Positions 10,312 to 61,340 of a stretch of 64,000 nucleotides of DNA are shown here, in pieces (position 1 is the first letter of the stretch; the number at the start of each line of letters is the position of its first letter). The position numbers and the translations under genes were made by a program. The DNA is taken from NCBI GenBank assembly GCA_036172245.1, contig JAYWIR010000021.1:1922001-1986000 (forward strand), read 5' to 3'. The stretch is from Raillietiella orientalis. Lineage: Eukaryota. The notes beneath the pieces were generated by a model. That model saw only the letters and a list, made by a program, of their open reading frames with translations, did no database searches and was not told where the DNA came from.

Positions 10312-13300
10312 GTTTTGGTTGCCGAGAACCTTTCCTCGGAAACAGGCACGCTCGCAGTTGCGCCAGCTGATCGCCAACACGGAAGGATTCTCGACTCGAC
10401 ATTCAGCGGCTTCACTGCAGACTTCCGTGAGCCTCCCCGCACAACTGGAGGATTCCTTCCCTTCGTAAGCAGCCGCTTCAACGTGATGCGACCTTCATTC
10501 CACGTGACTCTTTGACGTGCTTTCTGTCCGAGGCAAAAACAAGCACAAGAGCTGAACGCTGTTGCTGGAGAAATTCAGAAGCGAATCTTAAACAGAGAGT
10601 GCCTGAGGGAAGTAGGCGAAGAGAGTGACACTCACGAGGACGCAGCACGTCAGCAGAGAAGGAACATCCCAGTATGACCTGATGATGGGCTTAGCAAAGC
10701 ATTGTGAAAGTTGGAGGGATTTCTTCCCGTCCGGTGTCATCCAAAGCACAATGTATTACACATACCTTCACAACATAGGACTGAGCCGGGAACAGTTTCA
10801 TTCTACTCATGCACGGCTTCCACTAAAGCCACCCTCATCCATCTTCCTTATTCTTGAACAAATGAAGATGCGACACTAAAGTGTTAATCGGGGAGGGAGG
10901 GGGGGAGGAAGCTACTGACGACGAGTTTTCCTGCTAATTTCAATGTCCTCGTCCTTTCTTTTCCTTTGGTGTTTTCTTGCAGAGATCGGGCTCGTGCAGT
11001 GACGATCCGAGACGGACGCTTCTTCTCCCCCAGAATTCCAACACAAGAAGATGTTCCCCGACGTGCGGTGGATTCCTTTATCGGTTCTCACCTCATCTTT
11101 GAGTCTGATGATGGTCTGATCCTCCAGTCCAATTACGTTGCTAGGATTCCCACGTGAGGCTGCAGTGCGCAAACTGCCGCTCAAATTCCGAAGGGAAGGC
11201 GTGCCAACTTTTATTTTGGCTCGTTCGATAACGATTTGAATGAGAACCCGGAAAATCGGACGATATGAGGTCATTTCGGAGCTCGGTTTCGAAGGCCTCG
11301 TGCGGAAGGGAAGCAGGAAGAGAACCAAAGATCTGGGAGACATGAACTCCATCAGACCCACGCACGGAGATTCATGGGAACGGAAACGCCACGAGAGGAT
11401 GGAAGGAAAAAAAAACGAAGATGGATGGCCGTCGGACATTCGTATTCGAAACCTCTCTATCTCTTAGCATTTTATCGCTGCTTTAGGATGTTTTTCCTTT
11501 TTGGGTGTGTGTGTGCCGTACTCAGGGAACATCGGTTTGCTTTCTCAGATCGGATCCTCGCAGAATTCCATGAAAATGAGTCCCCCACTTTCAACGAGGT
11601 CAGTTCGATTCTCGCTTCGGCTTCTTCCGAGGTAATCATTTTATCCGAAACGCCCGGAAATGTTTCACTTACCTGTTGCATGATGCTGTTTTCCTCTCCG
11701 CGGATGTTTTCACTGACCCATAACGAGGCTGCTGCTCACTGCAGGAATGGGAAAAATCCGTCCCCTGCACTCAGAGCAGGCGCAAACGCGGGGCTCACGA
11801 AGTCCACACTGAGACGTCCCCACTTTTAGAGCACCTTTATATGGGTATCCGGAAGAAGACGTACAGCCACGAGCAGCGAAAATCCGAGGCAGCGGCATCG
11901 CCGGGCTGAGGAACTCACGGCCGGGCATTTTTCGGATGGCGGAAGTGTGATTTATGAAAATTGATGGTCCGAGGGCAGGGAGTGTTCTCACCCGGTTGCG
12001 ACGGCCCAGCGCGAGAAGAAGGGAGGAAAGGGGGAGGGCGGGTTCCACACGAGATGAAAACCTGCGTAACTTGTGAAAATAAGCACAGTTTCCGATGTGT
12101 AATGGCAAAATGGCCGATTAGCAGCTGAGACTTCCGAAGAGAAGCGCATTTTTCGGTCGGCAGATCACCACCGTACGCAAGACGTGTTCGTGTTCGTAAA
12201 CACGTGTTCTTTGCTTGGGACAGAAACGGAGGGGGGGAAAAAAAAAAAAAAAAATGAATCGTGAATTTTGAATGGAAACACGGGTTCGCTCGGAAGGACA
12301 TATTCCTGAAAGCTGCTCGTACGAGCAGACTTTTAGCTTCGAGAGCCGACTTCGACCACGTTGCTCGTCATCATCAGAGACGCTCTTTTCAGAGCGCTGA
12401 TGACCCGCGGTTTCGGTCGGACTGGGCAGACGCGAGCTCGGCTTTTGGAAAGAGCTCGAAAAAAAAATGAGAGATTCTAAATCGTCATTAAACAAAAGAT
12501 CATCGTACCGAGAGGCCGTTCAATACGAATAGCAGTAGCAATTTCAAAGCTCAAGAGGGGAGAAAAAAAAAAAAAAAAAAAAACGCAATCCTCTCTGAAA
12601 ATCCAATAAATTCACATCTTCCGGCCGAAAGGAAGGGATGCACCGAAATCGTAGATCCTGCGGTTTCATACAGATTATGGAGACTGCTGCCATTGACGAT
12701 ACGTCTAAATACGATAAGGTCCGGTTCGCCGAGGTGGCGTTTCTGAAATCACCAGATGGTCCGACTGCAGCAGCCGTGCGCAGCGATGGGGCAATGGGGC
12801 AACTGGGTGAAATCACGCAACCTTTTGCTAATCGCCCTTTGACATGACCCCGTTTGTGCAAATGTTCGAAGACGCTTTTTTTTTCCTCTTTGGCACCGGT
12901 GGCAGCAGCTCAACGGGGCTTTCGACATTCCGAACTGCCAAATCGATTCAATCCACGGCTCGAAATGGACGATCGGTGGTGTGGCTCTTCACTGATGAAT
13001 CTCCGCATGGGCATCCCATTTCCCTTTGATCTTCCTTGCTTTCCGATTCACAGATCATGCCTCCTGGGCGCTGGTTGACTTTTTTTCCACCCATGTTTAA
13101 TAATTCAGATCTGGGAGTCACAGGAAGGCGCGGAAAATGAAAACTCTTCGATTTTTTTTTTATTTTTTTTTTTTTATTTTTTTGTGTCGGCTTATTTCAT
13201 GCATGGGAGGATCATCGAAAGAAATCATCACTGTTGCCTCGTGTTGCCTGCGGCACTGTGGTCAACTCCCGTGCAAGCAGACAAAATTAAGGTGCTTCCC

Positions 13301-24700: not shown

Positions 24701-26680
24701 AGGATGATTGAAAGTCGGTGGCGGCAAAAACGGGCAAAAAATTAGCTTGAAGGATTCCCCCAAAGGGAATCTTTTGTGCAATTTTTTTTTTTCCTTCTCT
24801 TGTGCCAACTTGTTAGATATTGCATTCACCTGCGATGGCCATGATTCTTCAAGAGCATTTCTGTTGACCCACTGCGAAAAATAGCATTGTAACTTCGACA
24901 CATGGATTACCCGCTTCGGCCCTATTATGTAGAAAAAGAATCACGATGAATGGAACCTTCTCGATCCATGGAATGCACGAATACAATACTTGCCCTGGGG
25001 GAAAATGCATTGTTTTTGTTTTTCTGCTTCCGGTTCCTCATTTTCTTCTCGGACGAATGCTTTTTCTTGCACACGTGCACTAAGTGTGTCTCTATGTGTT
25101 TATCCATACCGTACTTCACCACATGAACCTTACACGCGCACACAGAATTCCCTATGTGATCATTCAGGCTGCTGTAGGGAACCCAAGAGCTTCGAATGAG
25201 CGAGGCTGACCTTTGAGCACACGTGGCAAGAGTTGCACTCGCGTTCCGCTCAATAGTACGCAAAAGATGCTTGCTGAATTGGGAGCTCGCTCATGTTTTC
25301 TTGGACGCTGTCGCTGAAGACAGGGATTCCTCTAAGAACCCATGGGGCGACGAGAAATGGCGAATGATATATTGGAATGCAAAGCATTCGAGCGTGGAAG
25401 GATGGAGAACGTTTTTGTGGGAGCATGAAAAGATGAAATCTCTGTTTCGCGGAACATCTTGTTTCAAGAAGAAAAGCGCCTTCGAAAGCGTCGGCAGTTC
25501 CAGTCCTCCTGAAATACACTGTCCTTATAGTCTTTATAGTTCTGCCCCAGACGTCTGCCACGGTCGTCTGCAGTGGAAATAGAAAAATCAGGCGCAGCTT
25601 CCCATCGCCCGTGGGCATCGCATGAGTATGCGAGCCCTCGCAAATACGTCAAGAGTGTTCGTGGATGTTGCTGGAAACTCGTTTGTCCCCCACACAAAAA
25701 CGTCGTTTGCGAATAGCCCAAGCGACATGGACAATCGTGGACAAAAGTGTCGCGTTTGACCGCGACCCTTAGATAATCAAAAAGCTACGTGGGCCCTTCC
25801 CCGCACTCGGAATGGCAGCTGATCCGCTGCGATCCATTCGGGACGACGACCCCCACTCCCCTATTCATAGGGGGATGGGGGCCTCCGGTGTTGCCCCCCC
25901 CTGTAACGTGAAGAGTTACGCGCGCACCGTCAGGTAGCGTGCACAGCGGTGGAGAGCTTTGCGGGCTCTCCAAGGACTCGAATGGTTCTTCAGCACTTGG
26001 AGAACCAAAAAAAAGAGACCTTCCCGTTCGGCGAGGCTGTTCGGGGCAGAGGGGAGTGAAAGTGCGAGAATACCACGTCGCTGGTAAACAAAACAGGAGG
26101 AAACTTTCCTCGCCTGAAGGCGGATCAGATCCCACTGCAATTTTCGGATGGCTACCCGCGGGGAGGGGAGAGGGAACGGAGGGGACGTTTGCTACGTTGA
26201 AACAGTGCGGTCACTCGTTTGCCGGAGGCGCACACGACTCGGTGGAGCAGGCGCGGTGCGACGGTTCGCAGGGTTGAGGTTTCTCTCTGCCACCTCCCCA
26301 CCCCCCATCCCTTCCTACCTCCAGCACCGGCAGCTGCTTCCAGCTCTTGACTCCCCCGTCAAGGACCTAGCCAAGTAGCCACTCCTATAGGCGGTGCTTG
26401 AAAAGTTACTGCAGCCACCTTCGGAAGAGGACCTTGGAAGATTCTCATCCAACGACGCTCCAGGAAGGTTCCTCCGGATCAGTGGAGATACCAAAAGCAT
26501 GTGGACCACAGGAAGGCGAGCGACCCTCCCGCCGCACGTCGGCAACTCGGGAACTTTGAAGCTGGTGAAACCAGGATCCAAGCAGGAGACGACACCGCTT
26601 TGCGTCTCGCGCTGGTTTGGCCGTCATCTCCTCCGGATTATTTCACTCCGGGAAGACGCCCTGAGGTCTCAGAAGCCCGC

Positions 26681-26925
26681 GTCGGAGGCCGTGCGGCTGC
26701 GGTCTCCGCGCGCGGCACCACGCGTAGCTGGTTCGAATCCCGCCCGGGGACGCATCGACGGCAGAGAAACGGGTGCGTCGTGAGTTCGAGTTCCTCCCGC
26801 GAGATGACGCTGGTTGACCGATCGGCTTCGGGCTCGGCGCCAGTGGTAGAAGCTGAAAAACCGGATGCCCCGATGAGTTGCCGATGAGGTCCGAGGTCCT
26901 TCCAGGAAACGGAATCAAGGAACTC
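26681..26925 (+). mobile_element. SINE-like family, 5' fragment (copy B)
   Basis: B-box ggttcgaatcc, then gagaaacgggtgcgtcgtgagttcgagttcctcccgcgagatgacgctggttg...ggtccttccaggaa, shared with the other copies. Confidence 0.8.
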
Positions 26926-26929
26926 TGCC

Positions 26930-27090: not shown

Positions 27091-28705
27091 CAAGAACTGT
27101 AGTAGGTACTTGGAACAGTAAACTGAATAGAGGTTGAACGGAGGTCAAAGTGTCCTGTTTGCAATGCAGGTGAAACGCATCCACTATTTGGTTAGCCAGA
27201 TTAAGAATGCAGGGAGCGTTGAGTCTCCAGATTTGTTGGTCTGGTTCGACGATGGGGCTTCGTTTCTTAGACAGAGGATGGCGATTTGGCGTTAGGCTGC
27301 TCCTTTCCCGAAGATTCCTAACCAGGACACCGAAGCTCTTAATTCACGTCACGTCTTTCGCGTTCCATGTTCCGAAATCGGTGCTGCAAAATGAGCCGGC
27401 TGTCATCAACCTGCGATGACATCGGAGCCGCTGATCCACTGGGGTGTGCCTGCTGAAGGGAAGAATGCCCCAACACTTACGACTTGGGGCGGTTGCCAGA
27501 GAAGCGGAGGTCTTGCAGTTGATCAATTCTCGCGAATGCAACGCGATTTTTGTTAACGAAAAAAGGAAGAAAGGTCGTCGGAAACTCTCCTTCTTCTTTC
27601 ATCTCATTTTTTCTTTCTTTGTCTTTTCGGTATTTAAGTTTGGGTGCTCTTGAAATGGTCCGATTTCATTGCGTGCTTTCGTGAGTTCTTCTCAAAAATG
27701 AGCGTGTTGCTGAGGGATCTTGAGCGGGTGTTTCAGGATAAGTACCTGTGCACCATTCCCGGCACACCGGATCTTCCGACTGTCGGATGCTGGATCAGAT
27801 TCCGAATCGATCTGAGTCCTCTCTTTAGTGCGAAGCCTCACCGGTTCTCCCTTTTTTCTCGACCCCAAGGAATGCCCGCAAGTTCGAAACCTTCCTCCGA
27901 ATCTTCGGCGTGTGGGAGCTTCCGTGGGACCCACTGTTAGGTAGGTTTCCAGCCCCACGGCTCCATGTCACACCATCATGGATCGCACCTTGCAAGGATG
28001 GAGAGGGGAAGAAGAAAAAAAAGCGTTGGCAGTTCTACCGGAGCTGCGCGCGCAGTATCGGGACGTTCACCGAATCCCCGGAAGATGGTGCTGAGACGGG
28101 CGGCACGGCACTCGTTTTTGGAATCCATAGAAGAGGGCAGTCCATTTTGCAAGCCGATGGACGCGACTCGAGATGGCAGCGAATGCTGTCGAAATCGGAA
28201 AAGGACAGAAAACCTTCGCGATGTGCCATCCGGCAGATGCAAATCCCTGTCTGAGGAAATCACTTCTTCTGGGGAAAAGGGAAAGCAGCCTTGTTGCATG
28301 GATCAAACCGGACGTCTGTGGAACTCTCTTGGTTCCGGGGGGAGGAGTGAAAGAGTTCCACGATCGGGTCAGGTGCGGGCCGCGCAGCTCGTTCGGGCTG
28401 CGGCGGTGCCGCCTGTGCCCAGCGGAGGAGGGCAAAGGGCGAAAATGTGACATCCCGCGTCTTCTGGAAGTTGCCGAGGCAGCGGCATAGCTGATTAGCA
28501 CGCATAACGAACACGGTGGATTGCGCTTTGATTCATGGTTCCGACGTTATCTTGCCAGTAACTGCGCTTGAAAAAAAAAAAAAAAGAAGAAGCAGGGAGG
28601 AAGAGAAAAACGGGAGAGCGTCAACTGCCCCTTTGCTCCACGAAACCAGCTAGGCCCGAGCCACACTTCCGCTTGTCGCACGTGCATCCTCCCGCCACGT
28701 AGTTC

Positions 28706-29812
28706 TTGCGGCCCAGGGACGTCCTGCAAACGCTGATCGGGTCCGGTTGGGTGGGGTTTCGAATGGGCTTTTGCTGCAGCAAACGGCGCTTTAGATCACC
28801 AGCAATGATTCCGAGATGTTCCACTTTCGAACGTGGTGTACAAATGTTTCGATCGGCTTCCGAGTTTCGATTCCCTCATCAACTCGTGGTAGACTGTAGG
28901 GACAGCAACGAGCAGGGAACCTGGAAAGTGTCGTGTACCGTGGAAGGCAGGACGCGACCGATAAAGGCGTGGACATCTCGGCAGCTAGCGGACGCTGCGA
29001 CCCCGAGTGTCCCGCCCAATGAAATCATACGTTGGGGCGAGCTGCTGGCAATACCTCCAGGGGAGGTGAAGTGGCCCCCAGCGTGTTGGAACAGTGGCTC
29101 CCTTCCCATGAAGTGGCAGGAGATGGCGCTACTCGTTTTGCATTGGGGACTCCCCTGCAAAGCGCGCCTCATCCACTGGACTCGAGGGAGTGTGGATGCC
29201 TTTTGTGCACGGTGCGGAGAGAAGGAGACCTTCCCCCACCTTCTTGTGGAATGCGTCGCCCTCCGCCCCCTCTGGGATCGTCTTGCTACGATCCTGAACA
29301 TTGACGGAGGTACTCCCAGGGGCATTTTCCGGCGACTCTTCTCGCGTGCCTCCTTGCCCCCGGCCGCTTCCTTAGCAGTGCTGTACCGCATCCGTGGAAT
29401 CGTGGCGGCATGGAATGCGTCTAGAAGATGCACGGATGGCAGGGATGCCACCCACTGGAAGCGAATATTCGCAAGAAAGCTCTCCAGGTGGCCCCACCTG
29501 GGCGTGAACGGGGCTCAGCTCGCTAGGATCCTAAATAGGATCTAGAGGACCAATCCACGCGCAGTGTGATCCCATCCCCGCCCCTCCCCACTCCCAGAAC
29601 CTTGTGCCCTCCCTACATTTCTCCTTTTGTTTGTTTTTTGTTTTATTTCTTCCTACCCCCGCGCGTTGGATGGACCTCGCCGGTTTTTGCGCCGGCAACT
29701 AGCTTGCTGCTGTGGAGTGGTGAGCCCTTGAGTTCACCACAAGAAAGTAACATGTGTTTTTATTTGTTTCAAATAAATGCCCCGGCACATCCGGGTGATA
29801 AACTCGTGGTAG
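28706..29812 (+). mobile_element. L1/Tx1-clade LINE 3' fragment: ORF2 C-terminus with zf-RVT (CCHC) plus 3' UTR
   Basis: The open frame 28706-29545 contains KWQEMALLVLHWGLPCKARLIHW...FCARCGEKETFPHLLVECVALRPLW (C-x2-C...E-T-x2-H-x4-C), followed by a pyrimidine/T-rich 3' UTR. Decayed post-RT sequence (FFWGKG..., VAW..VC...PGGG) lies upstream at ~28100-28450. Confidence 0.85.
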
Positions 29813-29869
29813 AAAAGAAAATATCGGCGCTTTAGACCTTGGCGCTGTCTCAGATCGTCACCTCGTCCG

Positions 29870-30458
29870 TGGGAAGCGGATCCGTGCGCCAGCCGCGGGG
29901 GTTCGAAGCGTATCGACGGGGCTGACTTTCGGTTAGCGTCCTAAGCTGGTGAACACCAAGAAACGCTGGGACGCCGACGCAGGGTGGTTTTGGGGCACCC
30001 CGCGTAACAAACCAGTCGTGCGGCTGCGGCCCCCCACGCGGAGGTTGGGCCCGAGAAACGAGGTGCGCCGTGAGTTTCGAGACTCCTCCGCAGGATGACG
30101 CTGGTTAGCTCCGGGGGTGTTTGTGAGCCATTCCGGGGACCCCCAGGTAAGGATCCGCTACTCGTTTCCTCCTCTGAAGAGAACTCCGAAGCGACGCTCC
30201 CCAGTTTTCTCTGAAGGGAGAAGCGCTCTTCCTGCACTCTGGGGAGGTCCCATCATCAAACAATCCACCAGCTCCACCCTACGCGATGGAGGGTCCCTGC
30301 CCTCGGAAGGGGTGGCATTTTCACAACCGGAGGGAACTACTCCTCGCTTCCTGGAAGGACTTCTGTGGGTTCACTTCCAATCGCGGCCGGTCATCGGGGG
30401 CACGCGGCTTCCACCAGAGTGCTGCCGCACCCGAATGGAGGCTGACCAGCTTCATCTT
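29870..30458. mobile_element. SINE-like family, rearranged copy C (head on + to ~30112, body on - at ~30130-30458)
   Basis: The plus strand has ccgagaaacgaggtgcgccgtgagtttcgagactcctccgcaggatgacgctggttag. It is followed by the reverse complement of the body (ctctgaagagaactccgaag...ttttcacaaccggaggg...ctggaaggac...gctgccgcacccgaa). Confidence 0.7.
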
Positions 30459-30959
30459 CACTCACGACGCCTGGTGCCATGCGGCCGCCAACGCAGGCCC
30501 GCCTCCGACGTGCAACTGGCCGCTGCTGCTCCTCCAGCTGAGGCATCCAGCTCTCTATGGAGCTGGCTGGACGGAAGGCGGAATCTTTCCAGCAAGACAT
30601 CCGCTCAAGGTCTGAGGACCTCGCAAACGGAGGGAAGGAAAGGAGGGAGGGAGGAAGGGGGGAGGGGAGAGAACTGCGTTGCAAGCAGCAGCGTCTTCCG
30701 CTGTTTGCGCGTCTCAGATTCAGGCAGATACTGGAAAGTGATCTCGCATCCACTGCATACGCAAACCGAGACACCTCTGAAGTCTCCGACGGGAGGAATT
30801 CGACTCTTCTTGCGCGAAACTTCGAAGCGGGGGGTGGGGGGTGGGTGGGGAGAAAGAAAAGAAAAGAAAAAAGAAAAATGAAAATTCTTGAAGAACGCAC
30901 AATCGGTGTTGTCGTCCAGACAAATGAGATGTCCGCTCTGCCGAGAGTGACTTCCGTCG

Positions 30960-31450: not shown

Positions 31451-31559
31451 TCGGAGGAGAGACGTCGCGTCTTTTCCTAGATCAGAATTTCGTCACCTGA
31501 CAACCTCGAAAGTCGGACTCGCTGTACTGACTACTCCTTAGGGGTTCCCTCTGAAGCGT

Positions 31560-32060
31560 AAGGGCAATCCGTTCCTCTGATGCTTGGGGAAGGGAACCCT
31601 GGCCCTGTTTGACCTCGAAAGGAGCCCTGAAGGGGCGCTTCCTATTTTCTCTGAAAGGCGCTCCCCGAAGGAAGCAGCGCGCTTCTTAACAGGCTGGAGC
31701 GGCAACCCTCCGAGGCGGGCGTATCAACCATCTCCATGGTAGTCGATGGAGGGTCCACCCCAAGTAGGTAGACGGTTTCATTTTCACAACTGGAAGGGGA
31801 GAACCCTAGAGGGTTCGTTGATGTCCTGGAAGGACCCCGGAAAGTCAACTTCCAACCCCGACCAGTCAACGGGGGCATCCAATTTCCCTAGTGCCGCCGC
31901 ACCCGAAGTCGAACGAGGTCAATCAGCGCCATCCTGCTGGAAAGGGCACTCAGACACCCACGAAGAGCCCCCTATTTCTCGGGACGTCGATCCTTCCCCC
32001 GGGGGCGGGATTCGAGTCCGTGACGCCTCGTGCCGCGCGCGCAGAGACAAGCGGCCGCCA
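31560..32060 (-). mobile_element. SINE-like family, copy D
   Basis: Reverse complement of the head (ggcgggattcgagtccgtgacgc, ~31995-32017) and body (tcctggaaggaccccgg, ttttcacaactgg, gctccccgaaggaagcagcgcgcttctt, tccgttcctct). Confidence 0.8.
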
Positions 32061-32279
32061 ACGTGTGTTTGGCTGAAAAGATCTGCATCTTTGAATGGAA
32101 GAGACGCTTAGGAAGCTGACTTCAAGGACGACGGAATCTCCCTCCGGGGCCCAGGAGCCATCTGCTTGGAGAACCGCGGTTCTTCCGTCCTCCGACTCCT
32201 TCCTGAGGTTTCATGCGGAAGATTCCCGTCTCGCCGGTGTCCAGGACCCAGCTCTCACTTGGGGCTCCCCGGCCGCCGG

Positions 32280-34450
32280 TTGAAAACGGGGATGGGAAGG
32301 TAGAAGCTCGGCCAGAGGAGGTGGAAGAGACGCGGGGAGCGTTCTGGAGGAGACGAAGAAAAGCGAAAGGAAATGGGCGAGGGGACTTCCGCGGCGAAGC
32401 TGGAAGAAGGGAAAGTTTGGTGCGCGTCTCCCCGAACCGGGTGTGATCCGGCGCCGGAAGATCGCCGGAACTCAGAAGGCGGGAGCGGGGGTAAGGGCGG
32501 AGAAGCAGCTTCGACCGGTTCAGGAACCCAAAGGCGGCAAGCGGACCCCTGGGATCCCCAGAGTCATTCAGAAGAAGCATCCCAAGAGGCTGCGAGCCGT
32601 CAGGCAACAGCTGCCATGGGACGGAGGACCCCGGGACGGACGCGGGAGCGTGAACGAAGAGGAGGGCGAAAAGACGTCTTCGAGGTCATCAAGGAAGGGG
32701 CGGAAGCGTTCGGCCAGAGCTCCCCCGGGCGACGCGGGTGCGCAGCAGCAGGGCGGGAAGCGCGCGCGGGTCCGGGGATCCTCCGTATCTTGGAGACGTC
32801 CAGGAAACGGGCTTATCCCTCTCAATTCTGCGCGAGCGGATGAGGGAAAGCATCATCGAGTGCGACGGGCGGATGACATCCCCGGACTGGAACTCCCGCC
32901 GAAAGTTTCAGATTACCGGGAGGGATGCAGGAGGGAAAAGGGTTGACGCGAACGGCACGTCTCATCGGAACGCTTGCAGCCCCTATGCGTCATCCCAGCT
33001 GCAAGCGAGACCGAATTGGTTCTCTTCCCGGCCCTCCGGTCTGGAGAGGAAGCGCGTGGAACCGCTGGCCGAGAAACCTCTGCCCCCACCCCCTCTCCCG
33101 GAAGGCAAGGCATGGGAGAGAGCGTCCCCTTCAGTCTCCGATCGAGGGAGATGGCACTTCCTGACGACTCAGAGGCTCCACGTTTCCGAGGAGGAAATGG
33201 GAGTGAAACTGAAGAGCGGTTCCCCCTTCCCCACCGCCGCCTCCGGGTGTGACGTCGGGTGCGCGCGCGCATCGGTTCCTAGAGCGCAGCACGAGCAGAA
33301 AGTGCCAGAGGATGTGATGGCTCCCAAGTCCGGTGGTGGTTGAAAGGCCCGGTTCGACCACCGCGAAGAACGCGAACCTCCCATCGCCGGTGGCAACTGC
33401 CAGACCGAAGTGCGGTCGTTCCTCTGCACCGGGGTGGCGTGAGGCAGATTCGCCACAGGGCGTGCGATCTTCGGGAAGATGAAACCCACGGTGCGTGGGC
33501 CGTGGATGCGGAGAGCGGCGACGGGCGGCTCGCGTTCTTCGCGAGTGGTCGAACCGGGCGGAGGCTCGGTCGAACCGAGCCTCCGCCGCCAGGCATCTCC
33601 CACGGCACGAGGAGGGAGCGATCGAATCACCAAGGACCGGTCCTCCTGTTCACATCTTCGTGCTGCGAGGCAGCTGGATCGAATGGATCCGCGTCCTCAC
33701 CCGGAGCCTGCTTCACTCCTGCTTTGCCTGCAAGGGCTGACCCTCGGGCCGCTCTCGACTTGCCCGGCAGTTTCGAGCAGGGCGTCCGAGCTGCGAACGG
33801 CCGCCGCCAGTCTCCGGCGAGTCCCAGGAGTTGTCACGCGTCCACGGTCTCGACAAAGCGTTCGGTCCACTTCATCCCGCACGCGCTCGATTGCCCACGA
33901 CCCGATCGCATCGGCGCTCAGGGACATCGAAGAAGGTAGTGCTCGTTTCTCTCTTCCCCCGGGTCGTCACGGTTACGCAAAGATCCCTGCCTGCCGCACG
34001 TTCCGAACGGACTGCAGACGGCGAGAGGCAACGGGCGCATCGGCAGTCAGGAGAGCATCTCACTGGTGCGGAAGACGAGCGCTGCTCGCACTTCCGGGCA
34101 AGGGGCAGGGAAGCCACCATCGAGAAAGATGTCCTCATCGGCGGTGCAGGCGACTCAAACTGCGTGGGTGCATTCTTCTTGACCTGCAGGTCAGGATGCG
34201 GGATGCTGGCTCCACGTGTCGTGGGACTCCGGTCGGAGATCCGAGCGAGTGAACGAGTGGGAGGCCTTTCCCTACCAGGAAACCCCCGGGGCGGCGTTGG
34301 CGGTTCCAGGTCAGCTTCCAATAAAAGCAATGGGCCGGAGATGGGAGGCAGGGGGGCCAAGCGGTGCTTCGGTCTGCTCGCAAAGGACTTCGGATCTTGC
34401 CTGCTCTTCCGGGGTGCGGAAAAGGAGGAGCGCACGGACCGAGCGGCGCC
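32280..34450 (-). pseudogene. Decayed L1/Tx1-like element: ORF1 zinc-knuckle region and APE endonuclease
   Basis: The ORF1-like KKNAPTQF...RKCEQ...RCARCLSPS is followed by EN remnants in order: RQEV (LQETH), FPGRL...CCAP (IPGRL...VYAP), ERFRPFLDDL, SRLLSS..PAPDH (SDH), PRPFPF..RLL. Confidence 0.45.
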
Positions 34451-34494
34451 CCCGGAAAAGACACGGCGCGCCCTTCCCATTTCGAGAGGACCTC

Positions 34495-35765
34495 CATCGC
34501 GGTCCTCATCTCCATCTCCGTGCGCGTGCGGCACCACCAGTTCGAATCCCGCCCGGGTAAGGATCGACCCCACGGGAAATGAGCACGCCGTAGAGTTTCG
34601 ATCGCTCCCCCCTCCACAGGGCAGCGTTGGTGGGCCTCAGTTGGCTTCGGGTGCAGGCGGCACTGGTCGGAGTCGGAAAGCCCCTGGTTGACCAGACAGG
34701 ATTGGAAGTGGACCCTCCGGGGTCCTTTTAGGAACCAAGGAGTCCTTCAGAGTTTCCCCCCCACCACCCTCCAGTTGTAAAAATGGAGCCGTCGCTTGCC
34801 ATGGGGCTGATGGATCGACGCCTCTTCAGAGCGTGCCGAAGAAGCGCGCTGCTCCCTTCGGGGTTCTTTTCAGAGGAGGAAACCAGGAGCGCATCCTTTC
34901 CGGATTCCCTTCGAGGAAGAAATGAGAAGTGTTTCTTGGTCCTCCCTCTGAGGAGACTTCGGAGACTACCAGAGCAAGGGTTTCCTCCCAAGTCGGCATC
35001 GGAAGCTTTGTGGTTACGGTGGTCTCCGTGCGTGGCACCACCAAGCATCGCGGATTCGAGTTCCTCCCGCAAGATGGCGCTGGTTGGCCTACAAACATTC
35101 GGATTCGGCACTGGTTGAAAACGGATGCCCTCTATGAGGGCCGGGACAACGGGAGTCGATCTTCGAGTCCTTTTAGGAATCAAGGAGTGGGAAGTTCCCC
35201 CTCCGGTTGTGCAAAGGAGAGCAGACCCCCGAGTGTGGGGGATCCCTCCGGTTCGTTCCGATGGAGTAGATGTGTCACCACCTCTCCAGAGAGTGCAGAG
35301 AAGCGTGCTGCTCCCTTCGGGGAGCGCTCTTTCGAGAAAATTCGGAAGCGTCCCTTCGGGGTTCTCTACAGAGGAGAAGAAGACAGGGAGCGGATCCTTT
35401 CCGGGTTCCCTTCGGAAAAGAAAAATTGAGCGGACCCCCTCCGAGGGTCCCTCCGGAGAGAATAAGGAAGAAGTGATTCCCTTCGGGGTTCCCCCTGGAA
35501 GACAACCAGGGTGGAGGTGTGATCCCCTTTCCGGGGATTCCTCCCCAGGTGTGAGAGGAACGGACTCCGAGTCCTTCCTGGATTCATAGGGTGGACCCGT
35601 CCCGGGGTACTTCCTATCTTGAAAAGCTCGAGAGGAAGGAAGGACTCCTTACTCTGGAGCCTTCCTGGATCGAATGTTGGTCTTTCCCCCTCTGAGGTAT
35701 GCCTCCTGTCTTGAAGAGTCAACGCGCACCATCGGGTGGTGTGGACCATGGGATGCACCCTCGGA
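34495..35765 (+). mobile_element. SINE-like family, head-to-tail dimer (copies E ~34495-34992 and F ~34993-35765)
   Basis: Two successive heads (ttcgaatcccgcccgggtaaggatcgac at ~34541; ggtctccgtgcgtggcacc...ggattcgag at ~35021), each followed by the body. Copy F has the fullest hairpin array. Confidence 0.82.
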
Positions 35766-37399: not shown

Positions 37400-37600
37400 T
37401 TTACTGAGAGGGAAACCCAGAGGAGTTGATGCCAAGGTCGCCTCTGACCTCGTCCTGCTCCCTTCTGGGAGCGCCCTCAAGAGGTACTCGAAATCGTCTC
37501 TTCGGAAACAACCATGGTGGGGGGTTCCCTCTTGGGTTCCCTGCCAAGTGGAAGAGGGAGGGACTCTTTCCTCCCGAGCCCTTCTTGGATATCAGGAGAT
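37400..37600 (+). mobile_element. SINE-like family, degenerate internal/3' fragment (copy G)
   Basis: ctgctcccttctgggagcgc...ggaaacaaccatgg...gggttccctgccaagtggaagagggagggactctttcctcccgagcccttcttggat. Confidence 0.6.
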
Positions 37601-45956: not shown

Positions 45957-47133
45957 GTAAGCAGATGAATGCAGCTCGCCTTTCGGGCTCCTCGCGAGCC
46001 ATCCCATCTCCCGGGCGCCGCCTCGACAGGGCGCGGACAGGAGGCGAACTCTACCCTGTAAGGCGCTCTTGCTCCAGAGAGCGCCATCCAAACCGATTAT
46101 CGAGATGCCCGGGCTAAAACGCGAACGCACGTGCCCCAGTCCTTTTGTCTGGGCCACGGGATCCGTCGAAGCACTCGATCCTTTTACCGCGCTCCTCCGA
46201 TCCAGACGCTTCCCGTCGCCACTCCGCACGCCTCCTCGTGATTGGGTTTGAATTCCACGTCGGAAATTCCCGTATTCGATCCGAAGCGCACCAGCCGAAG
46301 AACCGTCGCCCGGGTGCGCCGGGAAGTTTATTTATAAATAAACCAAACATTCACGATCTCTGGGGTTGGACCGGTGGTTCGACCACGTCCTCTTCACATC
46401 TAACTTGCAGCCTTACCCGTTCGTGAGGTCCTCCACGGAAGCAGAGGGGAGAAGGCAGGCAAAAAGAAAAAGAAACAAAAAAAATAATAAAAAAAAAAAA
46501 AAAATTGGGGTGGGAAGGGATCACGTCCTACTCGATATCCTTCGGAGGATGCCGGAAAGGTCTTGCTGGGTGTTGTTTTTCCAGGTAGGGCCATCTTGTT
46601 GCCGTCCTCGTGAAGCGGACGGCGAAGTGGATGTGGCACCCCTGCTCTTCGGTCCTCCTCCTGCCTCGCTCCAGACAGAGAGGATCCCGTGTAGGCAGCA
46701 CAGGGCTGCTGCTAGCGAGGTGGTCGGAGTGCGTCGCGTGGGAGGAGGCGTCCAGACAAAGAGAGTGTTCCTCGGCTCTGCTCTTCCGAACCGCGACGGA
46801 CGAAAATGAGCGGTCGATCGGCTTGCCGGCAGCTCACTTTTTCGCTCTTTGTGGAATCCTCCGCACCATGTCCCCTCGCCCAGCATGTCTTCGAGCGCTT
46901 CCGCCTCCGGATCACAAGGAGAAAGCTGGGTTCAGAGGCGGTCGCGCCCTCGAACCCTTGGCGGCGGCGCCTTCTGGAAATCCCTCGCCGGACAAGGCGG
47001 CGTCGCCAGCGAACGGTCACCGCATGCCTAGGCCGGAAGTTGCGTTCCCGCCGTGGTCTCAGGGATTCTGGTTGGCGCTCTTATCCGCTCCGCGGGTTTT
47101 GCCACCGCCTCAAAAACCTCCGACTAGGTCGTT

Positions 47134-47594
47134 GGTGCGTCGCTTGAAGGGAGTCTGCGTTCCGTTGACCACAGGTAGGTGAGCTCTTGCTGTCCGTCTT
47201 GGCCTTTCGAGGAAAGAAAAGATGATGCCCTCTAGCCGTCAACGCGAACAGGCCGGTGCGTGCACGGGTGCGCATGAGCACAACTGAACTTAAAAAAGAG
47301 GGGTGGGGGGATTCGAGGGGCCATTCGACGGCTCAGATGGAAGTACGCACGAAAGGTACACACCCAGAACTTGTTCACGTGGACACGCGCATGCCAAAAG
47401 CGTTTTTCTATTTGGCTGGTGCCTCCGATTAGCGTGTGCTCATGCGTCGACTGCACGCACCAGCACGCTCGCGAACCTGCGCGCATCGAAGGCGAGAGTG
47501 CATCATCTTTTTTTTCCTCGAAAGGTCAAGACAGACAGCAAGAGAGCACCCTCCTGTGGTCAACGGAACGTTGTTTTTTTTCTAGAGACGCACC
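47134..47594. repeat. Long imperfect inverted repeat (arms 47134-47282 and 47435-47594, ~150-nt spacer); MITE/foldback-like
   Basis: The left arm cgttccgttgaccacaggtaggtgagctcttgctgtccgtcttggcctttcgaggaaagaaaagatgatgc is the near-exact reverse complement of gcatcatcttttttttcctcgaaaggtcaagacagacagcaagagagcaccctcctgtggtcaacggaacg. Confidence 0.9.
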
Positions 47595-47719
47595 GCTTCG
47601 CCTGCGCCTCGAGAGAGACTGCCCGTTGGACGGCCTTCCTCCCCGGTCACGAAGCGGCTCAGAAAGCAGTCACACGCGATCAAGCAAGAGCGCATCACGT
47701 GTGTCGCAGCAGCCACCCC

Positions 47720-48345
47720 CCGCTGGCGGCCCTGCGGTCCCATGCGGTCTACGCGCGCGGCATCGATCGTCGCGGGTTCGAAGCCCACCCGAGGAAGGAT
47801 CGACCACCCCGAGAAATGGATTTCGAGTAGTGGGTTTCGATTCCCTCTTCCCCGCAAGATGATGCTGTATGGCCTCTATACGGGTGCAGCACCCATGGAA
47901 GCCCCCATTGAATGGCCAGGATTGGAAGCTGACCCTCTGGGGTCCTTCCAGGACATCAAGGAGCTCTCCAGGGTCCTATCCTCCGGTTGTGAAGATGGAG
48001 GGGTTACCATGGAACCGGCTGATTCTCTCTCTCAGGGGTTGCCTCTCCAGAGTGTTAAGAAGCGCGCCTCTTTCTTCGGAGAAAGCCCTTAGGAGAAATT
48101 GAGAAGCGTCCCGTCGGAGTTCTCTTCAGAGGAGGGAACGAGGGGCCCGGATCCTTTCTGGGTTCCTTCCGGAGACAACCAGGGCGAGGGTTCCCTCCCA
48201 AGTGTAAGAAAGAAACGGACTCTCCTTCCTCCGAAGCCTTCCTGGATTCCTGGATGGTACCCCGTCCGGAGCACCCCAATAAATGGAAGAAGAGTTGTTC
48301 GCACCCTCGGGGAGCGCGGACGGTGCCAAAGAGCTCCGTGTTCCC
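47720..48345 (+). mobile_element. SINE-like family, near full-length copy H (Drgx intron)
   Basis: cgcgggttcgaagcccacccgaggaaggatcgac head; body ggggtccttccagga, ctccggttgtgaagatgg, gttctcttcagaggagg, ggagacaacc, ccttcctggattc; 3' cgcaccctcggg...ccaaagagctccgtg. Confidence 0.82.
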
Positions 48346-48599
48346 CAACTCCTTCCACGGAAGCGAGCGCTTTCTTCGCAACAGCCGATGAGGTAGCTTC
48401 CCATGTGATCTGAGGGGAAGCGGAAAAGGTTCGATACGTCAGTTAAAGGGAGCAGCAACAGCGACTTGCCACCTTGCAAAATTTCAAGATGCGGAACCTG
48501 GAAGGACCGCTCCTCGGGCACTCTTCGCAGCTTCATCTCATCAAGCCCGCTTCCGGAAAAGCGCCCGCCTTAAGTGACCTGCATATTGAGTTTGCAAAG

Positions 48600-55340: not shown

Positions 55341-57989
55341 GGCTGCTCGGCCAAACTCCAAAGCAGTTTCTCGATCCCGAGATATTGATGAGCTCAAGCT
55401 CCAGTGCCGGACCATCTTCGAGCAGCGCGATCCGAGAATCGCTCTTCGCGCCCTTTAGGACAGGTTCGATGTGCTTCTGCTTCGTCTCTGAGGGACGGCT
55501 CTGAAGATCTGGAGCATCCTCGAGAGCTTGAGAGACGTATCTCTTCTTTGCCGTATCTCTTCGAGGAAACCTCCAGAGGGATCTCCTCGTCTGGAACGAA
55601 CCGTGACTGCCGGCTCGCCTAACTGTGGGAAGCGGGCAGCGCGCAAGCGTCGGCCCAATCCGGAAAGTGTCGTGGGGGGGGGGCGACTCCGGAACAGAAG
55701 CGTCTGCTGGAGGCAATCGACACGAAGCTCCGGTTGGCTTCAGAACCGCGGAGGAACTTTGAAACGGAAGGGACGATCAGAACGGTTAAAAGCGAACGGA
55801 GGAGGAAGAAGGAATGAGGCGGTGGGAATCGGAGAAAGGAAGTCACTGGACGTGTTCCACAACGGCGAATTTCCCCCATCCTGCTACTGATGCGATCTGC
55901 CGCCCGTATTTTGGGGTCGCAGGACCCTCGCCCTCCCGCACCGACCAACTAAACGATCATTCGTCGAGAGCCCGTTGCCTCGCCAGAGTCTCAGCTAATG
56001 GATTCCATTTCCTTCTGGATCTTTCCGACCTCTTTTACTGCTCATTTGCTTTTGAGACCATTCTTTCATGAGACAAGGCTGCGTGCACCCCTGCCGCCCT
56101 CCATGAACGTTTATGCTGGTAACCCCTGCTCGGCTGGCGCAGTTATCCGCTGCTCGATTCTTACAGTCGTCGTAACCAAGCAAAGGACATCTTTTTTTCT
56201 TTTTTTTTTCGTTTGCTGCTGATTCCTTGGAGACGGATTGATCATTAGTCATGGATTTCCTGGCACCTTTTAAATCCAGGTTTGCCTGCTCTTTTCTTCC
56301 GACCCGATATCATCTTTCTCGCCATCCCGCTACCAATTACGAAAGAAGAGTCCTTTCACTGAATACCATGTAGTTCTGTGATCTTTCATCCTTTTCCACC
56401 CTCCTGGAACTGCGTGGCACAGGCGCCCCTCGAAGCCAAACGCCATTTCACGAGAGGCGCACGGTCCCCTTTTATTTGCATCCCTTCCCGCTCCCATTTC
56501 GTTCCTGCGAGAAGTTCTTGAGAGAACTTTTCGCCAGCGCTGATCCCTCTTAGCCTTTCTCCCCGTTCCTCCATTGGCACCCTCCATCCCGCTCGCCGTC
56601 CCGATGCGATCCCGTTATTTCCTCATGCCGTGGAACTTTCACCTTGCAGATCTCTCGAAGGCGCTGACTCGGAAGCTGCGCTCATTTCATCCAGAGTCCT
56701 TTCTAGTCCGCCTTTTTCCCGGTCTCCAGTGGAACCTCCCTTGCACCCGCTGTGGGTCCTGGAAAGGGGAACCGACTCGCTCTGGCTTCCCATTGGCTGG
56801 CGCGCTTTCGCGTCTTCCTCGCCTCAGCAGCGATACTGCAGCATGCACGTGGCGAGGATTCCTCGATGATCTATCCTCCGTTTCCTGGATGCGAATGTCC
56901 TGTATATTCCGTATTCGTTTCTGAAACATTCTTTATCTTTTTCCGGATGCTTAGTTTTCTTCTTTTCTCTTTGGAGAATGAGACTCTCCGAGCAATCCAG
57001 GCAATTCAATAGATGGACTCATACGACCGCGGCCATCGGAGAGACACCTCTGTCACCTGAATCCCCATCTTTGCGTCATGAACTCCGCGGCCAAAGCCAG
57101 AAGAAGGTTTCGGCTCTGAGGGCTCGTCCCAACGACCCACCCAAACTCACCCTGAGCGCGCGAGACAAACAGCCTCCTCTTCCTCCCTCCCTCCCGTAGA
57201 CGTAGCCCTTGCACGTGACATTGTCCGCCACTCTGCTTTTGTTTTGTTTTTGTTTTCGTTCTTTATTCCACGGAGGCGCCTTCGGTCCCACCTTATTCCT
57301 CGTGGAGATTCCGAAGGGGCTTTCAGAGTGCTCGCCGACGAAGGGACGTTCTTTGCTAGACGGTCATCGAGGCTTCACGACCAACGTTTCTTACGTCACG
57401 GCGCTCTTTCTCGACGTCGTGTCACGTGGTTCCGTGAAAGCGTTTTCTTGATCGTGCGGCATCGATGCTCCCTCTTTGCTCAACGCACGGTCTGAGTAAC
57501 CTTTAGACCGAGTAGCCTCATCGTCCACAATCACTCACCTTTGCAAGGAAGGCGTCGAGGGAAGCCCCACTTGGGGAGAATCTTCCCGCCTGCATCCCAA
57601 GCTTGTAGGGAAATGTCGTGTAACCACCATAACGGCATCTCGCTGTCCCGAGCTCCTCGCGTCCGGAAATCCGAAAATCCGCAGCTGAAACCGCATTTTC
57701 GTGTTATCCAGGCACAGAGGTAGCACAGTGCTCAGTTCACTGTCAATGGACCAGCACTCGTGTGCTCCCTCGGGCATTCTGTCCTTCAGAAGGACTGCAT
57801 GGATCAAGATGAGACTTGAGGCCCCACACGCGTGCCTTCGCAACCTATCGTCAGATCTTTACATTCCACTGCCTCCAGAAATTCCATCGCCGCTGAGCTT
57901 CCGCATGTCTTCAGCACCTCTCTGTCACTCGCAGATCAGTTTTCCAATGGTCGGTCAACTCAGTTTCAAGCATCTCGGTGTATTGCTGC

Positions 57990-58696
57990 TTGGGTGCTGC
58001 TTGCGACTCTGCGGTGGCAGCCCTGCTGCTGCTACGCGTCACGGGTTCGAATCCCGTCGGGGGAAGGAGCAACCCCCGGGGAAATGGGTGTGTCGTGAGT
58101 CTCGAGTTCCCCCCCCTACAAGATGACGCTGGTTGGCCGGTAGGCTTCGCCCGCAGCACTGGAGGAAGCCAGGAGCCTCCGGATGCCGCCGTCGAGTGGC
58201 CGGGTTTGGAGGTCGACCCTCCGGGGTCCTTTCCAGGAATCGAGGAGTCCTGCAGGGTTTCACCCCTCTTGTTGTGGAAATGTCTTCCGGGGAGACCCAC
58301 CGTCGCGCTTCATGGAGCTGGTTGATACCGTCCACGGCGAATTTCCTCTTAGAGCGTCAGAAGTGTGCCCTTCAGGGATATTTGGGAAAATCTCTTCGGA
58401 GATCTCTTCAAAGGAGAAAACCAGGACTCCTGAGGGTTCCCTCCCGGAGAAGTTCCGGGAGCGACCCCCTGCGGGAGGTCTCTCCGGAGAGAACAAGAGG
58501 TGGTTCCCTTCGGTGCTCCCTCCCAAGCGTGAGAAAGGAATTAACTTTCTCCGGTACCCTTCCCGGATTCATACGGTGGTCCCTCCGAGGTCATCCCTAC
58601 AACCGGAAGGGTTCCACGCACCCTCGGGCGGCGTGGACAGGCGTCAAAGATCTTCGTGAGTCCCTAGGCAAACGCTTCCTGAGCACTTAGCAAACC
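57990..58696 (+). mobile_element. SINE-like family, near full-length copy I (Drgx intron)
   Basis: gggttcgaatcccgtcgggggaagg head at ~58043, the complete body, and the 3' end caaagatcttcgtgag...cacttagcaaac. Confidence 0.82.
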
Positions 58697-59029
58697 AGAA
58701 AAGGGAATACGCTGGAGTGAGCCGCAGCAGCCCCAGTAGGATAAAGTGATGACCTCCTTGCTGAACTCTGTAGCATGCGAGTGGTCCCCGTTCCCAAGTT
58801 CCACCAGCTCCGTTCTTCGTGGAAGCAGACGCGCCGGATCATCCGTCCGTGCTTCCCGTACAGGATTTCGTTAACATCCTTTTGAAGCACTGCACACGAT
58901 GGGGAGGAGGGGGGGAGGGCATCTCCAGAGTATCCATGGGACTCTTTTGTGCCCCCGAGGCTTCTGCACCTTTCGGCTGAGAGGCGCCAGTAGGGGAAGA
59001 GGGAATCCGATGAACGGAATAGTGCGCGC

Positions 59030-59900
59030 CGTAGTTCTGCACACTCTCTTTCCCTGGTCGCTCCTCCTCTGCCCTAAACGCTACCTGCTGTTGGGTCCCA
59101 CGCCCACAAGGGTCACCTGAAAAGCCGCTGAAGGAAGTCAGCATCGCCACGAGCCGAAGAACGGCCTTGGAGGAGGCTTCCGTCTTCCGCGGCACGCGTC
59201 GCCAGTGAGGAATGCTGATATCCGTGGCCGTGAGGGCATGCGGGAGCCTCTCGGCGTGCCTTCGTGCTGATTATCTGCGACTTCTTTTCCTCTTTTTCTT
59301 TCCGGCCGTTCTCCTCGTCCACTGCTTTCGTTTCCGTTAGCCACTTTCCTTGCTTCCGGTGGCAGAGCTGGTCCAAGTAAATGGGTTCCTGAAATGGCCA
59401 CTTCCGAGTTTTAGATGCGAACGCGAGCGATCTCGTAGCCCAGAATCCACCAATCACTTCTTCTCAAAGAGTCCCTTCTCCTAGTCGCTTCTTCTGCCCT
59501 GTGCGATTCGAACCCGCGACGAAGACCTCGGTGGCCGTGGTCCTCTTCGTCGCGAAGGAGGGGGTCGCGGTAGGGGGAGACAGGAAGCTCGCCTTCATCT
59601 TCCCGACCTCAGGGGAATCGTCCCCCACCCTTGCACAGTCCTCATCCGACCTCTGGAGAAAGGTCGGCACGCTACATTCGACTCCGCCTGTTCCCTAGAG
59701 AGGTTCGGGAAGGGAGGGGAGCTGCTGCTGCTGCTGTCGCCGCCTCCATGATGGCAGTGGAGGTGCGCAGGTGACCTCGCCCTGCGGATCGAGGGAGCAG
59801 CCGGCCCCACGAGCCACGGATGCCGCGTGGCGATCAGACGATCTTCCAGGTTACACAGGCGCGCGCGAACCCCTGTAATTGAGGATTCCCGCCGTGTCCT
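59030..59900 (+). pseudogene. Decayed L1/Tx1-like endonuclease directly after SINE copy I
   Basis: LHTLFPWSLLLCPKRYLL (T.N..GL..P.KR), PLKEVSIAT (LQE.H), GVAVGGD (GGDFN). An 89-nt gapless paralogous match exists at 60994-61082. Confidence 0.4.
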
Positions 59901-60214
59901 GGTCTCTCTCGGAACCTGCAAGGCCTCGGGACACGCAAGCGGGTGGCTGCCAAGTCACAGGGACGAACCTGCGACCCGGCTGCGCGCAAACCCTCAGGGG
60001 CGTTTGCTGGGTGGCAGGCGGGGGAGACGAGCGGGGTGAGGAGGAAGAACTCGGATGGTATGGTTTCGGCCCTCTGTTTTGCGCAGACACCCATGGGTGC
60101 GGCAACGAACCCACCCCCTCCTCTCCCCCCGTCGCACCTCGTAGAGGCCGTTTCTTGTGCACCGTTTTGCAGCGAATCTTCCAAGGTCAAGACTGCGATG
60201 TTTCCAGGCGGAGT

Positions 60215-60712
60215 TAGCGTCGGAACCACACGGCTCGCGTTGGCGGCTTCACTCTCCGCGCGTCGCGGGCTCGAATCCTGCCCAGGGAAGCAGCGCTTCC
60301 CTGGGAAATGGGTGCGTCGCGGGTCTCTAGTTCCCCCCCCCCTCTTAAGATGACGCTAGCTGGCCTACGTCCGGATGCGATGGCGTTGGTAGAAGCCGAA
60401 AAACTGGGTGCCCTTGATGGGTGATCGGGATTGGGGGTCGACCCTCCAGGGTCCCGCTTCCAGGAAACTGAGTCAAGGAGTTCGATTCCTTTCGGGGCTC
60501 TCTTGGGAGACAACCAGGTCGGAGGGTTCCCTCACAGACATGAGAGGAACGGACTCCCTTCTCCGGAGCCCTTCCTGGATTCATAGGGGGGTCCCCTATG
60601 GGGTCACCTCCCCTACAACTTGAAGAGCTAACACGACGTTCGGGCGGTGTGGTGTCAAAGAGCTGCGTGAGCCTCCAGGCGCGCGAGGTTTTTTGAGGTA
60701 CTCAGCTAACCA
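60215..60712 (+). mobile_element. SINE-like family, internally deleted copy J (Drgx intron)
   Basis: Head cgcgggctcgaatcctgcccagggaag; the central hairpin block is missing; the 3' part ggagacaacc...gagaggaacggactcccttctccggagcccttcctggattcataggg...caaagagctgcgtgag is present. Confidence 0.8.
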
Positions 60713-60889
60713 AGGTCACGACGGTGGCAAAGATCCACCATACGGGCTACTCTGGTGCTCCAGGGAACAGCGCCACCTGGACTGCCCCGGGACTTCGCAG
60801 GCAGGCGCAGAGCGAGCGTGGCTCCTCGCTGACTTGGCACCATACTGTTCTTCCTTTTTTCATGCCTCTCGGGGGTGGAAGTAGAAGAG

Positions 60890-61340
60890 GGAAGTTTTCT
60901 TCGCTTTCCCAAAGTTCGGGACCCCTCCTCCTCCTCCCAGGATCTGAGGCCTTGTTTCACCGCGCGTCCCGTGCAGGAGAACCGGCGGCCGCTCCGCTGA
61001 GGGAGCTCTGCATCGCCACGAGTCGAACAACGGCCTTGGCGATGGCTTCCGCCTTCTGCGGCACGTGCTGCTAGCACGGAATCCCACGTCCACTGGCTCC
61101 ACGTCGGTGCGGTCCATCCACCTCTCATCAGCATCCGGAGATGCCGTGCGGAATGGCGACTCCCGCCCGAAGAACACCTTCGAAGGGCGCCGCCTCCCTG
61201 CTGCGAGCAGGCGCGCGTTTCCGCACTCCCTCCGTCCTCATCGGGAAAGCGGGAACAGAAGGAAGCGTTTCTTTTCCGCCTTGGAAGTCAAACACTGACT
61301 CGCATCCCCGCGACCACCTCCCCCAGGTCACGGGGTTCCC
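60890..61340 (+). pseudogene. Decayed L1/Tx1-like endonuclease directly after SINE copy J
   Basis: PLRELCIAT (LQE.H), EGRRL (GR), NRRKRFFSALE (R..FF..L). It is paralogous to 59125-59213. Confidence 0.4.

Follow-up and report, generated by a model that had tools for sequence, protein, structure and literature searches.

The stretch at positions 34993-35765 of the 64,000-nt Raillietiella orientalis contig segment analyzed here (the window) raises two questions: what kind of element is it that recurs at other places in the same window, in both orientations, and are the short UNCG-loop hairpins in its body maintained because the RNA needs them? An earlier note on this DNA described a tRNA-headed, SINE-like mobile element whose body is a chain of such hairpins, and raised the prospect of a highly structured mobile RNA. 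Our analysis indicates that the element probably belongs to a family of SINE-like retroposons that is old, unclassified, and non-coding, in which full copies are long (~0.74-0.79 kb) and the hairpins are neutral. Its architecture is best read as a B-box-like head with no demonstrable tRNA ancestry, followed by a body in which worn internal repeats tend to form hairpins, and then an A-tail.

A self-comparison of the window and three iterations of nhmmer, for which the most complete copy (57996-58704) served as seed, identified 14 insertions of one repeat family on both strands (17 sense nhmmer hits). All 12 of the approximately 12 positions listed earlier hold a copy of this family, as judged by nhmmer and head alignment, and two copies not on that list were found at 25854-26012 (forward strand, +) and 30099-30458 (reverse strand, -). 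Full copies are ~740-790 nt long and are dispersed rather than arranged in tandem. Pairwise identity among the copies is 66-87%, so that most of them must be old. Scans of metagenomes with the family motifs returned 0 loci.

The most complete copy, c58 (57975-58712, +), contains the head, body, and tail; its B-box-like GGTTCGAATCC lies at 58044-58054, and it has zero runs of four or more T (T4+). Copy c47 (47695-48487, +) is near full-length, with four internal deletions of 8-29 nt, ~100 nt of extra sequence ahead of the tail, and the end CACCTTGCAAAA. Copy c60 (60194-60716, +) carries a 218-nt internal deletion (model 209-426). Several copies retain mainly the 5′ part of the element. Copy c26 (26655-26927, +) is a 5′ fragment running from the head to model position 210, with an exact GGTTCGAATCC at 26730-26740; c32 (31538-32090, -) extends from the head to model 462; and c29 (29845-30109, +) is a divergent head fragment reaching model 104. 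The last of these abuts, head to head, c30 (30099-30515, -), which consists of model 87-465 plus a head remnant without the B-box segment. Internal fragments are found at 3039-3193 (c03, +; model 442-585), which is 81% identical to 35487-35623, and at 37418-37590 (c37, +; model 372-535). The 3′ part is represented by c25 (25854-26020, +; model 525-664) and c62 (62672-62975, -; model 416-663), and c63 (63748-64000, -; model 304-533) is cut by the end of the window. The block-wise differences between copies that had been described are evident here in the 8-29 nt indels, the 218-nt deletion, and a ~44-nt duplicated unit.

This duplicated unit is located in the flagged interval, which proved to be a composite and not the single element it had been taken for. 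Positions 34993-35765 contain one copy, c35 (34994-35629, +; nhmmer 35046-35498 for model 58-491 and 35494-35628 for model 448-580), and the 3′ part of another, c34. The 5′ part of c34 (34490-34993, +) runs from the head to model 494 (nhmmer 34531-34993, model 3-494) and is interrupted by c35; its 3′ continuation (35630-35752, +; model 495-611) directly follows c35. Because c34 stops at 34993, corresponding to model 494, and resumes at 35630, corresponding to model 495, c35 is a separate copy lying within c34. The 5′ end of c35 is ~25 nt short of the family start, the ~44-nt unit is present twice (model 447-490), and the copy stops at model ~580 without a tail. Head alignment revealed that c35 and c30 both lack a ~55-nt segment carrying the canonical GGTTCGAATCC. 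A paralogue of the B-box-like block lies 55 nt further downstream, and the segment absent from these two copies falls between block and paralogue. The loss of a segment flanked by two similar blocks suggests slippage or unequal exchange between internal repeats.

The ends of the element are informative about how it spreads. Six 5′-complete copies, as well as c35, have ~65 nt in common upstream of the B-box-like motif, beyond which their flanks are unrelated. The 3′ end of the family is CACTTRGCAAAC, and both matches to it in the window at up to one mismatch (2 of 2) belong to the family. Ends of this type are followed by A-rich sequence in c58, where the tail CACTTAGCAAAC precedes the A-rich bases, by A8 in c25, and by ~36 A in c62, where CACTTGGCAAAC is followed by poly(A) at 62675-62710; this last copy, listed at 62674, is the one for which a poly(A) tail had been claimed. 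Copies c62 and c25 are truncated at the 5′ end and keep the 3′ end. A 13-nt direct repeat is placed exactly at both ends of c60 (60181-60193 and 60710-60722). Its two units differ at a single position, and it is a candidate for a target-site duplication. No target-site duplication was detected in the other four of the five copies tested, whose flanking repeats reach at most 7 nt, and this ratio of just 1 in 5 counts against our preferred reading.

Taken together, a defined 5′ end, a fixed 3′ end with an A-tail, 5′ truncations, and one target-site duplication point to copying through RNA and insertion by LINE machinery that uses poly(A). The proposal of a mobile, RNA-mediated, SINE-like element is upheld by the shared discrete 5′ end, the A-tails, the 5′ truncations, and the 13-nt flanking duplication, and also by a conserved B-box-like motif and a scarcity of T4+ runs on the sense strand. 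In SINEBase terms, the family is a short (<1 kb), interspersed, non-tandem repeat, and it bears the marks of LINE-type retroposition (tail, target-site duplication, 5′ truncation). According to the mechanism that we favor, the A-tail of the RNA would be used by the reverse transcriptase of an L1/Tx1-type LINE. At 28703-29542 the window contains a C-terminal piece of a LINE ORF2 that includes a zf-RVT domain. Other A-tailed insertions occur elsewhere in the window and, together with this ORF2 tail, indicate that such machinery exists in this genome. The window contains one LINE 3′ end, to which the family showed no resemblance. Among 126 of the 150 longest stop-to-stop ORFs, the 24 left out being those that overlap repeat copies, there was one Pfam match, the LINE zf-RVT fragment. 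In the Protein Atlas this fragment matched zf-RVT clusters only, in which the commonest taxa were Chordata and Chlorophyta, a distribution given no taxonomic weight here. The observed/expected ratio of CpG is 0.8-1.0 across the window.

The head had been described as tRNA-like. It is not recognizable as a tRNA, and a B-box-like T-arm motif is the only such feature present. ARAGORN reported no tRNA in the window, nor in eight heads and their majority consensus, under default and -ps settings. Matches at -ps80 and -ps70 were rejected as noise, as they named Arg, Ser, Gly, Ala, and Val on both strands and were mutually inconsistent. No copy matched the Rfam tRNA, 5S, or 7SL models, either in a search of the whole window at E≤10 or in a search of two heads alone with the laxest filters; the two heads gave only chance-level matches to unrelated families. 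Rfam and ARAGORN serve here as proxies for the SINEBase head criterion, which asks for at least 60% identity to tRNA, 5S rRNA, or 7SL RNA across 60 nt or more. Since no tRNA, 5S, or 7SL ancestry is demonstrable with these proxies, we refer to the family as SINE-like and do not file it among the tRNA-SINEs, from which it differs in this respect. The absence of a demonstrable tRNA or other Pol III RNA ancestor in the ARAGORN and Rfam searches counts against the preferred reading.

The head does contain a T-arm-like hairpin with a 5-bp stem around TTCGAAT, which matches the B-box consensus. Exact matches to this consensus occur three times in the 64 kb, each time within a head of the family. The most conserved 12-mer of the element is TCGAATCCCGCC, with a pairwise column identity of 0.89 compared to a mean of 0.667, and a degenerate A-box-like stretch can be seen by eye ~47 nt upstream of the B-box-like motif. 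The sense strand has 21 runs of at least four A and six T4+ runs, none of which falls in the two longest copies; simple arithmetic puts this asymmetry at ~0.003 (one-sided), a value that treats non-independent copies as independent. As judged from the sequence, the B-box-like motif, its conservation, and the scarcity of T4 are indications that would agree with an internal promoter and transcription by Pol III. In the preferred reading, GGTTCGAATCC, held within the 5-bp T-arm-like stem and the best conserved block of the element, may act as the B box of a transcription unit whose sense strand would avoid T4 terminators. SINEBase itself treats boxes A and B as no more than an indication of a SINE (PMC3531059).

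It is possible, for this reason among others, that the family falls outside the SINEs as strictly defined and that it instead comprises LINE-dependent non-autonomous retroposons, or retropseudogenes, of a ~0.75-kb Pol II transcript, in which case GGTTCGAATCC would be another TTCGA-type hairpin unit and not a promoter. The negative tRNA detectors are consistent with this proposal, as is the length of the element, which exceeds the SINEBase range. The paralogue of the B-box-like block 55 nt downstream and the existence of c35 and c30 as copies without the canonical block also favor it. However, it does not account for the B-box-like block being the most conserved part of the element, for the location of every exact B-box match of the window in a head, or for the avoidance of T4 runs on the sense strand. 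The 5′ end also lies ~75 nt upstream of the B-box-like block, which would fit the geometry of an internal promoter. On balance we consider a Pol II origin unlikely.

The body of the element had been described as a modular chain of hairpins. The hairpins named in that description are present at 35310-35325, 35352, 35479, 35432-35450, and 35562-35574, and the enrichment of their loop motif is real. In 13 stretches totaling 5265 nt, the sense strand contains 18 CTTCGG and the antisense strand two, compared to 3.2 ± 1.8 in dinucleotide-shuffled sequence (the sense count was reached in 0 of 500 shuffles). CTNCGG occurs 39 times on the sense and 12 times on the antisense strand, compared to 9.6 ± 3.0 (0 of 500), a roughly 4-fold enrichment. 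UNCG-loop hairpins with a stem of at least 3 bp number 26 on the sense strand, 14 on the antisense strand, and 5.9 in shuffled sequence (0 of 300 reach), so that UNCG loops are indeed commoner than in shuffled or antisense sequence. Counted as hairpins in general, the chain exceeds chance only modestly, with 90 local hairpins on the sense strand compared to 86 ± 3.3 in shuffles.

The spacing of the motif is consistent with a repeat origin. The family consensus contains 11 CYYCGG sites, 26-67 nt apart and in similar contexts, and lags of ~40-44 and ~81-84 are among the top autocorrelation values (z of 2-3). A profile of the unit recovered orthologous units strongly and paralogous units only at E-values of 0.003-0.9, and Tandem Repeats Finder detected no array within any copy. 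At these E-values for paralogous units and a z of 2-3 for the periodicity, support for a tandem origin of the body is weak. The GC-rich body may nevertheless consist of worn internal copies of a short unit that contains CC-CTTCGG-GG and is prone to form hairpins. Such units, repeated in one orientation, would place all UUCG-type loops on one strand even if RNA structure were not under selection. The deletions and duplications of whole blocks by which copies and subfamilies differ could then arise through slippage from one unit to another.

A precedent for a body of this kind exists in the CHRS SINE, in which a ~20-nt degenerate motif is repeated more than 10 times (PMC3531059). Bodies assembled from internal repeats have thus been seen in SINEs before. 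Compared by description, CHRS and the present family are alike in having a body of many degenerate internal repeats and variants that differ in repeat number. The unit of the present family is longer, irregular (26-67 nt between CYYCGG sites), and palindromic, and its repeat ancestry is weakly detectable.

Whether the hairpins have been kept as RNA structure can be examined by comparing the two strands. Local hairpins (ΔG of -8 kcal/mol or lower, span of at most 40) number 90 on the sense strand, 92 on the antisense strand, and 86 ± 3.3 in shuffles, and their summed energies are -1320, -1316, and -1178 ± 45 kcal/mol, respectively. Hairpin potential exceeds expectation modestly and to the same degree on the two strands, which is what DNA palindromes would give. 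Folding of whole copies gave z-scores of -2.2 and -2.7 for the sense and -2.5 and -1.7 for the antisense strand (20 shuffles each). The RNAalifold consensus structures are weak, at -2 to -15 kcal/mol per segment of 100-144 columns, and in the best region of a seven-copy alignment RNAalifold predicted eight pairs with 0 compensatory changes. Conservation of the CYYCGG columns is 0.673, compared to 0.666 elsewhere, and 2192 of 5000 random column sets score at least as high.

In c32, the earlier note's copy D, the main stem reads gcttcc-ttcg-gggagc, and the retention of pairing through a G-U wobble was taken to mean that the stem is kept on the RNA sense strand. This hairpin is present. When stems were defined strand-symmetrically from the consensus, the non-Watson-Crick stem cells comprised 80 G-U and 83 A-C; in stems of at least 4 bp the counts were 37 and 46, and in stems of at least 5 bp 12 and 13. 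A different tally, with 269 G-U and 57 A-C, was discarded as circular, since G-U pairs had been allowed in the choice of stems. Because G-U shows no excess over A-C in stems, the lone case in c32 is not part of a sense-strand trend.

Compensated changes are somewhat more suggestive. The two named hairpins contain three two-sided changes, a number reached by 16 of 500 shuffles. Family-wide, 12 of 39 double changes are compensated, compared to 7.4 ± 2.6 when complementary columns that lie far apart are taken as the null (as many or more in 35 of 500 null sets); for stems of at least 4 bp the figures are 8 of 22 and 3.8 ± 2.0 (27 of 500). The excess over the null is marginal. The alignment is 4-12 copies deep per column, so that the power to detect covariation is low, and the few double changes cannot be counted as independent, given the common descent of the copies. 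Matched changes can also arise without selection when the template switches within a quasi-palindrome.

These results bear on a second alternative, namely that at least 10 cUNCGg-capped hairpins are kept by selection for RNA stability or for the binding of LINE proteins, and that the family represents a new architecture of structured mobile RNA. The 4-fold enrichment of CTNCGG on one strand, the 11 CYYCGG sites in the consensus, and a summed local hairpin energy ~3 standard deviations below shuffles are in accordance with this proposal. So are the marginal excess of compensated changes and the fact that the stems of the two named hairpins have stayed perfect in c47 and c58 through the two-sided changes (three pairs). 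However, the antisense hairpins are equally strong, G-U is not above A-C in stems, the columns of the tetraloops are conserved no more strongly than others, and the RNAalifold consensus is weak, with none of its predicted pairs compensated. The double changes that favor selection are also those affected by shared ancestry, and template switching could mimic them. A functional hairpin array is therefore, in our estimation, decidedly unlikely. The expectation of a highly structured RNA is not borne out, given modest fold z-scores that are similar on both strands, weak consensus structures, no wobble bias, and motif columns that are not specially conserved. Likewise, stem-keeping covariation specific to the sense strand did not emerge from the G-U and A-C counts, from RNAalifold, or from the marginal double changes, at a depth of 4-12 copies per column.

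A third alternative is that the body was captured from a viroid-like, ribozyme-bearing, or other known structured RNA, as the earlier note had also considered. The abundance of small stable hairpins is the only feature that would recommend it. Of the 4227 Rfam models, which include hammerhead, HDV, and twister, none matched any copy at its gathering score or at E≤10; the whole window gave no match at the former threshold and six weak ones at the latter, all outside the copies. There is also no rod-like or globally stable fold (whole-copy z of -1.7 to -2.7). Capture of a known RNA of this kind, ribozymes included, is extremely improbable.

The preferred reading, an old SINE-like family with neutral hairpins, thus places the element close to known retroposons. 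Like SINEs, it has a head, body, and tail, an internal B-box-like motif, no coding content, a dispersed distribution, an A-tail, and 5′ truncations, and its subfamilies differ by internal deletions and duplications. It is distinguished from them by length and by a body rich in CTTCGG-capped hairpin units. The 175 SINE families in SINEBase are 75-662 nt long (PMC3531059), compared to ~740-790 nt here, and a length above all 175 counts against the preferred reading. In the portions of the literature that were available, there was no description of a SINE with UUCG-hairpin arrays and none of a crustacean SINE of such build.

Among longer elements, SVA and LAVA are composite Pol II non-autonomous retroposons with an internal VNTR, built from known elements. 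The present family shares with them a long, non-coding build, dependence on LINEs, an array of repeats inside the element, and a poly(A) tail. In contrast to SVA and LAVA, it has a B-box-like head and no recognizable parent parts. We conclude that it is an unclassified SINE-like retroposon that is unusually long and hairpin-rich and otherwise of an ordinary kind.

A bolder version of these observations could be envisaged, in which the family is the longest Pol III-type SINE yet seen and its source RNAs were selected as a string of at least 10 UUCG/UCCG hairpins that stabilize the RNA or recruit LINE proteins, the excess of compensated changes being a first trace of that selection. We regard this as a speculation with little chance of being correct.

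For the genome of this organism, the family is a matter of repeat annotation, useful for masking, for the dating of insertions, and for reading the biology of its LINEs. It also adds an unusually long SINE-like family to the arthropods, in which few SINEs have been described. If the hairpin array were selected, the family would constitute a natural mobile RNA made of repeated tetraloop hairpins and could help to explain how LINE proteins select the RNAs that they copy.

Separate copies of the SINE-like family, the unclassified non-coding retroposon of this window, are repeatedly broken near the same model positions, that is, near the same coordinates on the nhmmer profile seeded with the copy at 57996-58704. 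Model position ~208-210 is marked by one copy end, one 218-nt deletion and one 11-nt deletion, while model positions ~462-465 and ~533-535 each coincide with the ends of two copies. In window coordinates, these recurrent breakpoints lie at 26927, 60483, the 30240-30250 region, 31538, 30099, 37590 and 63748, and a LINE was not found at any of them. At the 3′ break of another family fragment (3039-3193), a 13-nt unit, CTGAAGAATTACA, is present in direct duplication (3179-3204).

Family copies are also joined to one another in two ways. At 34490-35752, the copy at 34994-35629 is nested within another copy of the same family, and the break in the host copy falls precisely on the 494|495 boundary of the model. 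Neither a poly(A) nor a visible target-site duplication accompanies the inner copy, which, consequently, may have arrived by any of several routes, namely retroposition, repair capture or rearrangement. At 29845-30515, two copies in opposite orientation adjoin head-to-head, with ~11 nt at 30099-30109 common to both. This junction is of the inversion type and not the result of simple twin priming.

The surrounding sequence is gene-poor and is not depleted of CpG: across window positions 1-64000, the CpG observed/expected ratio is 0.78-1.03 in all 4-kb bins, and only one of the 126 long ORFs scanned (the 150 longest stop-to-stop ORFs less 24 that overlap repeat copies) has a Pfam match. GC content ranges from 33% to 66% over the same interval. 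Several other repeats are found here. An inverted repeat of 119 nt and 81% identity (47134-47252 and 47476-47594), which may represent a foldback or MITE-like element, is located a short distance upstream of the family copy at 47695. Two shorter pairs, one direct (59125-59196 and 60994-61065; 85% identity) and one inverted (33347-33389 and 33516-33559; 91% identity), are unrelated to the SINE-like family.

A LINE is represented at 28703-29830 by the C-terminal portion of its ORF2, which includes a zf-RVT domain (E 1.4e-06), and, after it, by a ~290-nt 3′ UTR that is A-rich at its end; it does not resemble the SINE-like family's tail in sequence. Two further insertions, unrelated in sequence to the family, carry long A-rich tails of ~44 nt (46461-46504, plus strand) and ~38 nt (13152-13190, minus strand). 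Poly(A)-type retroposition has therefore been active repeatedly in this region.
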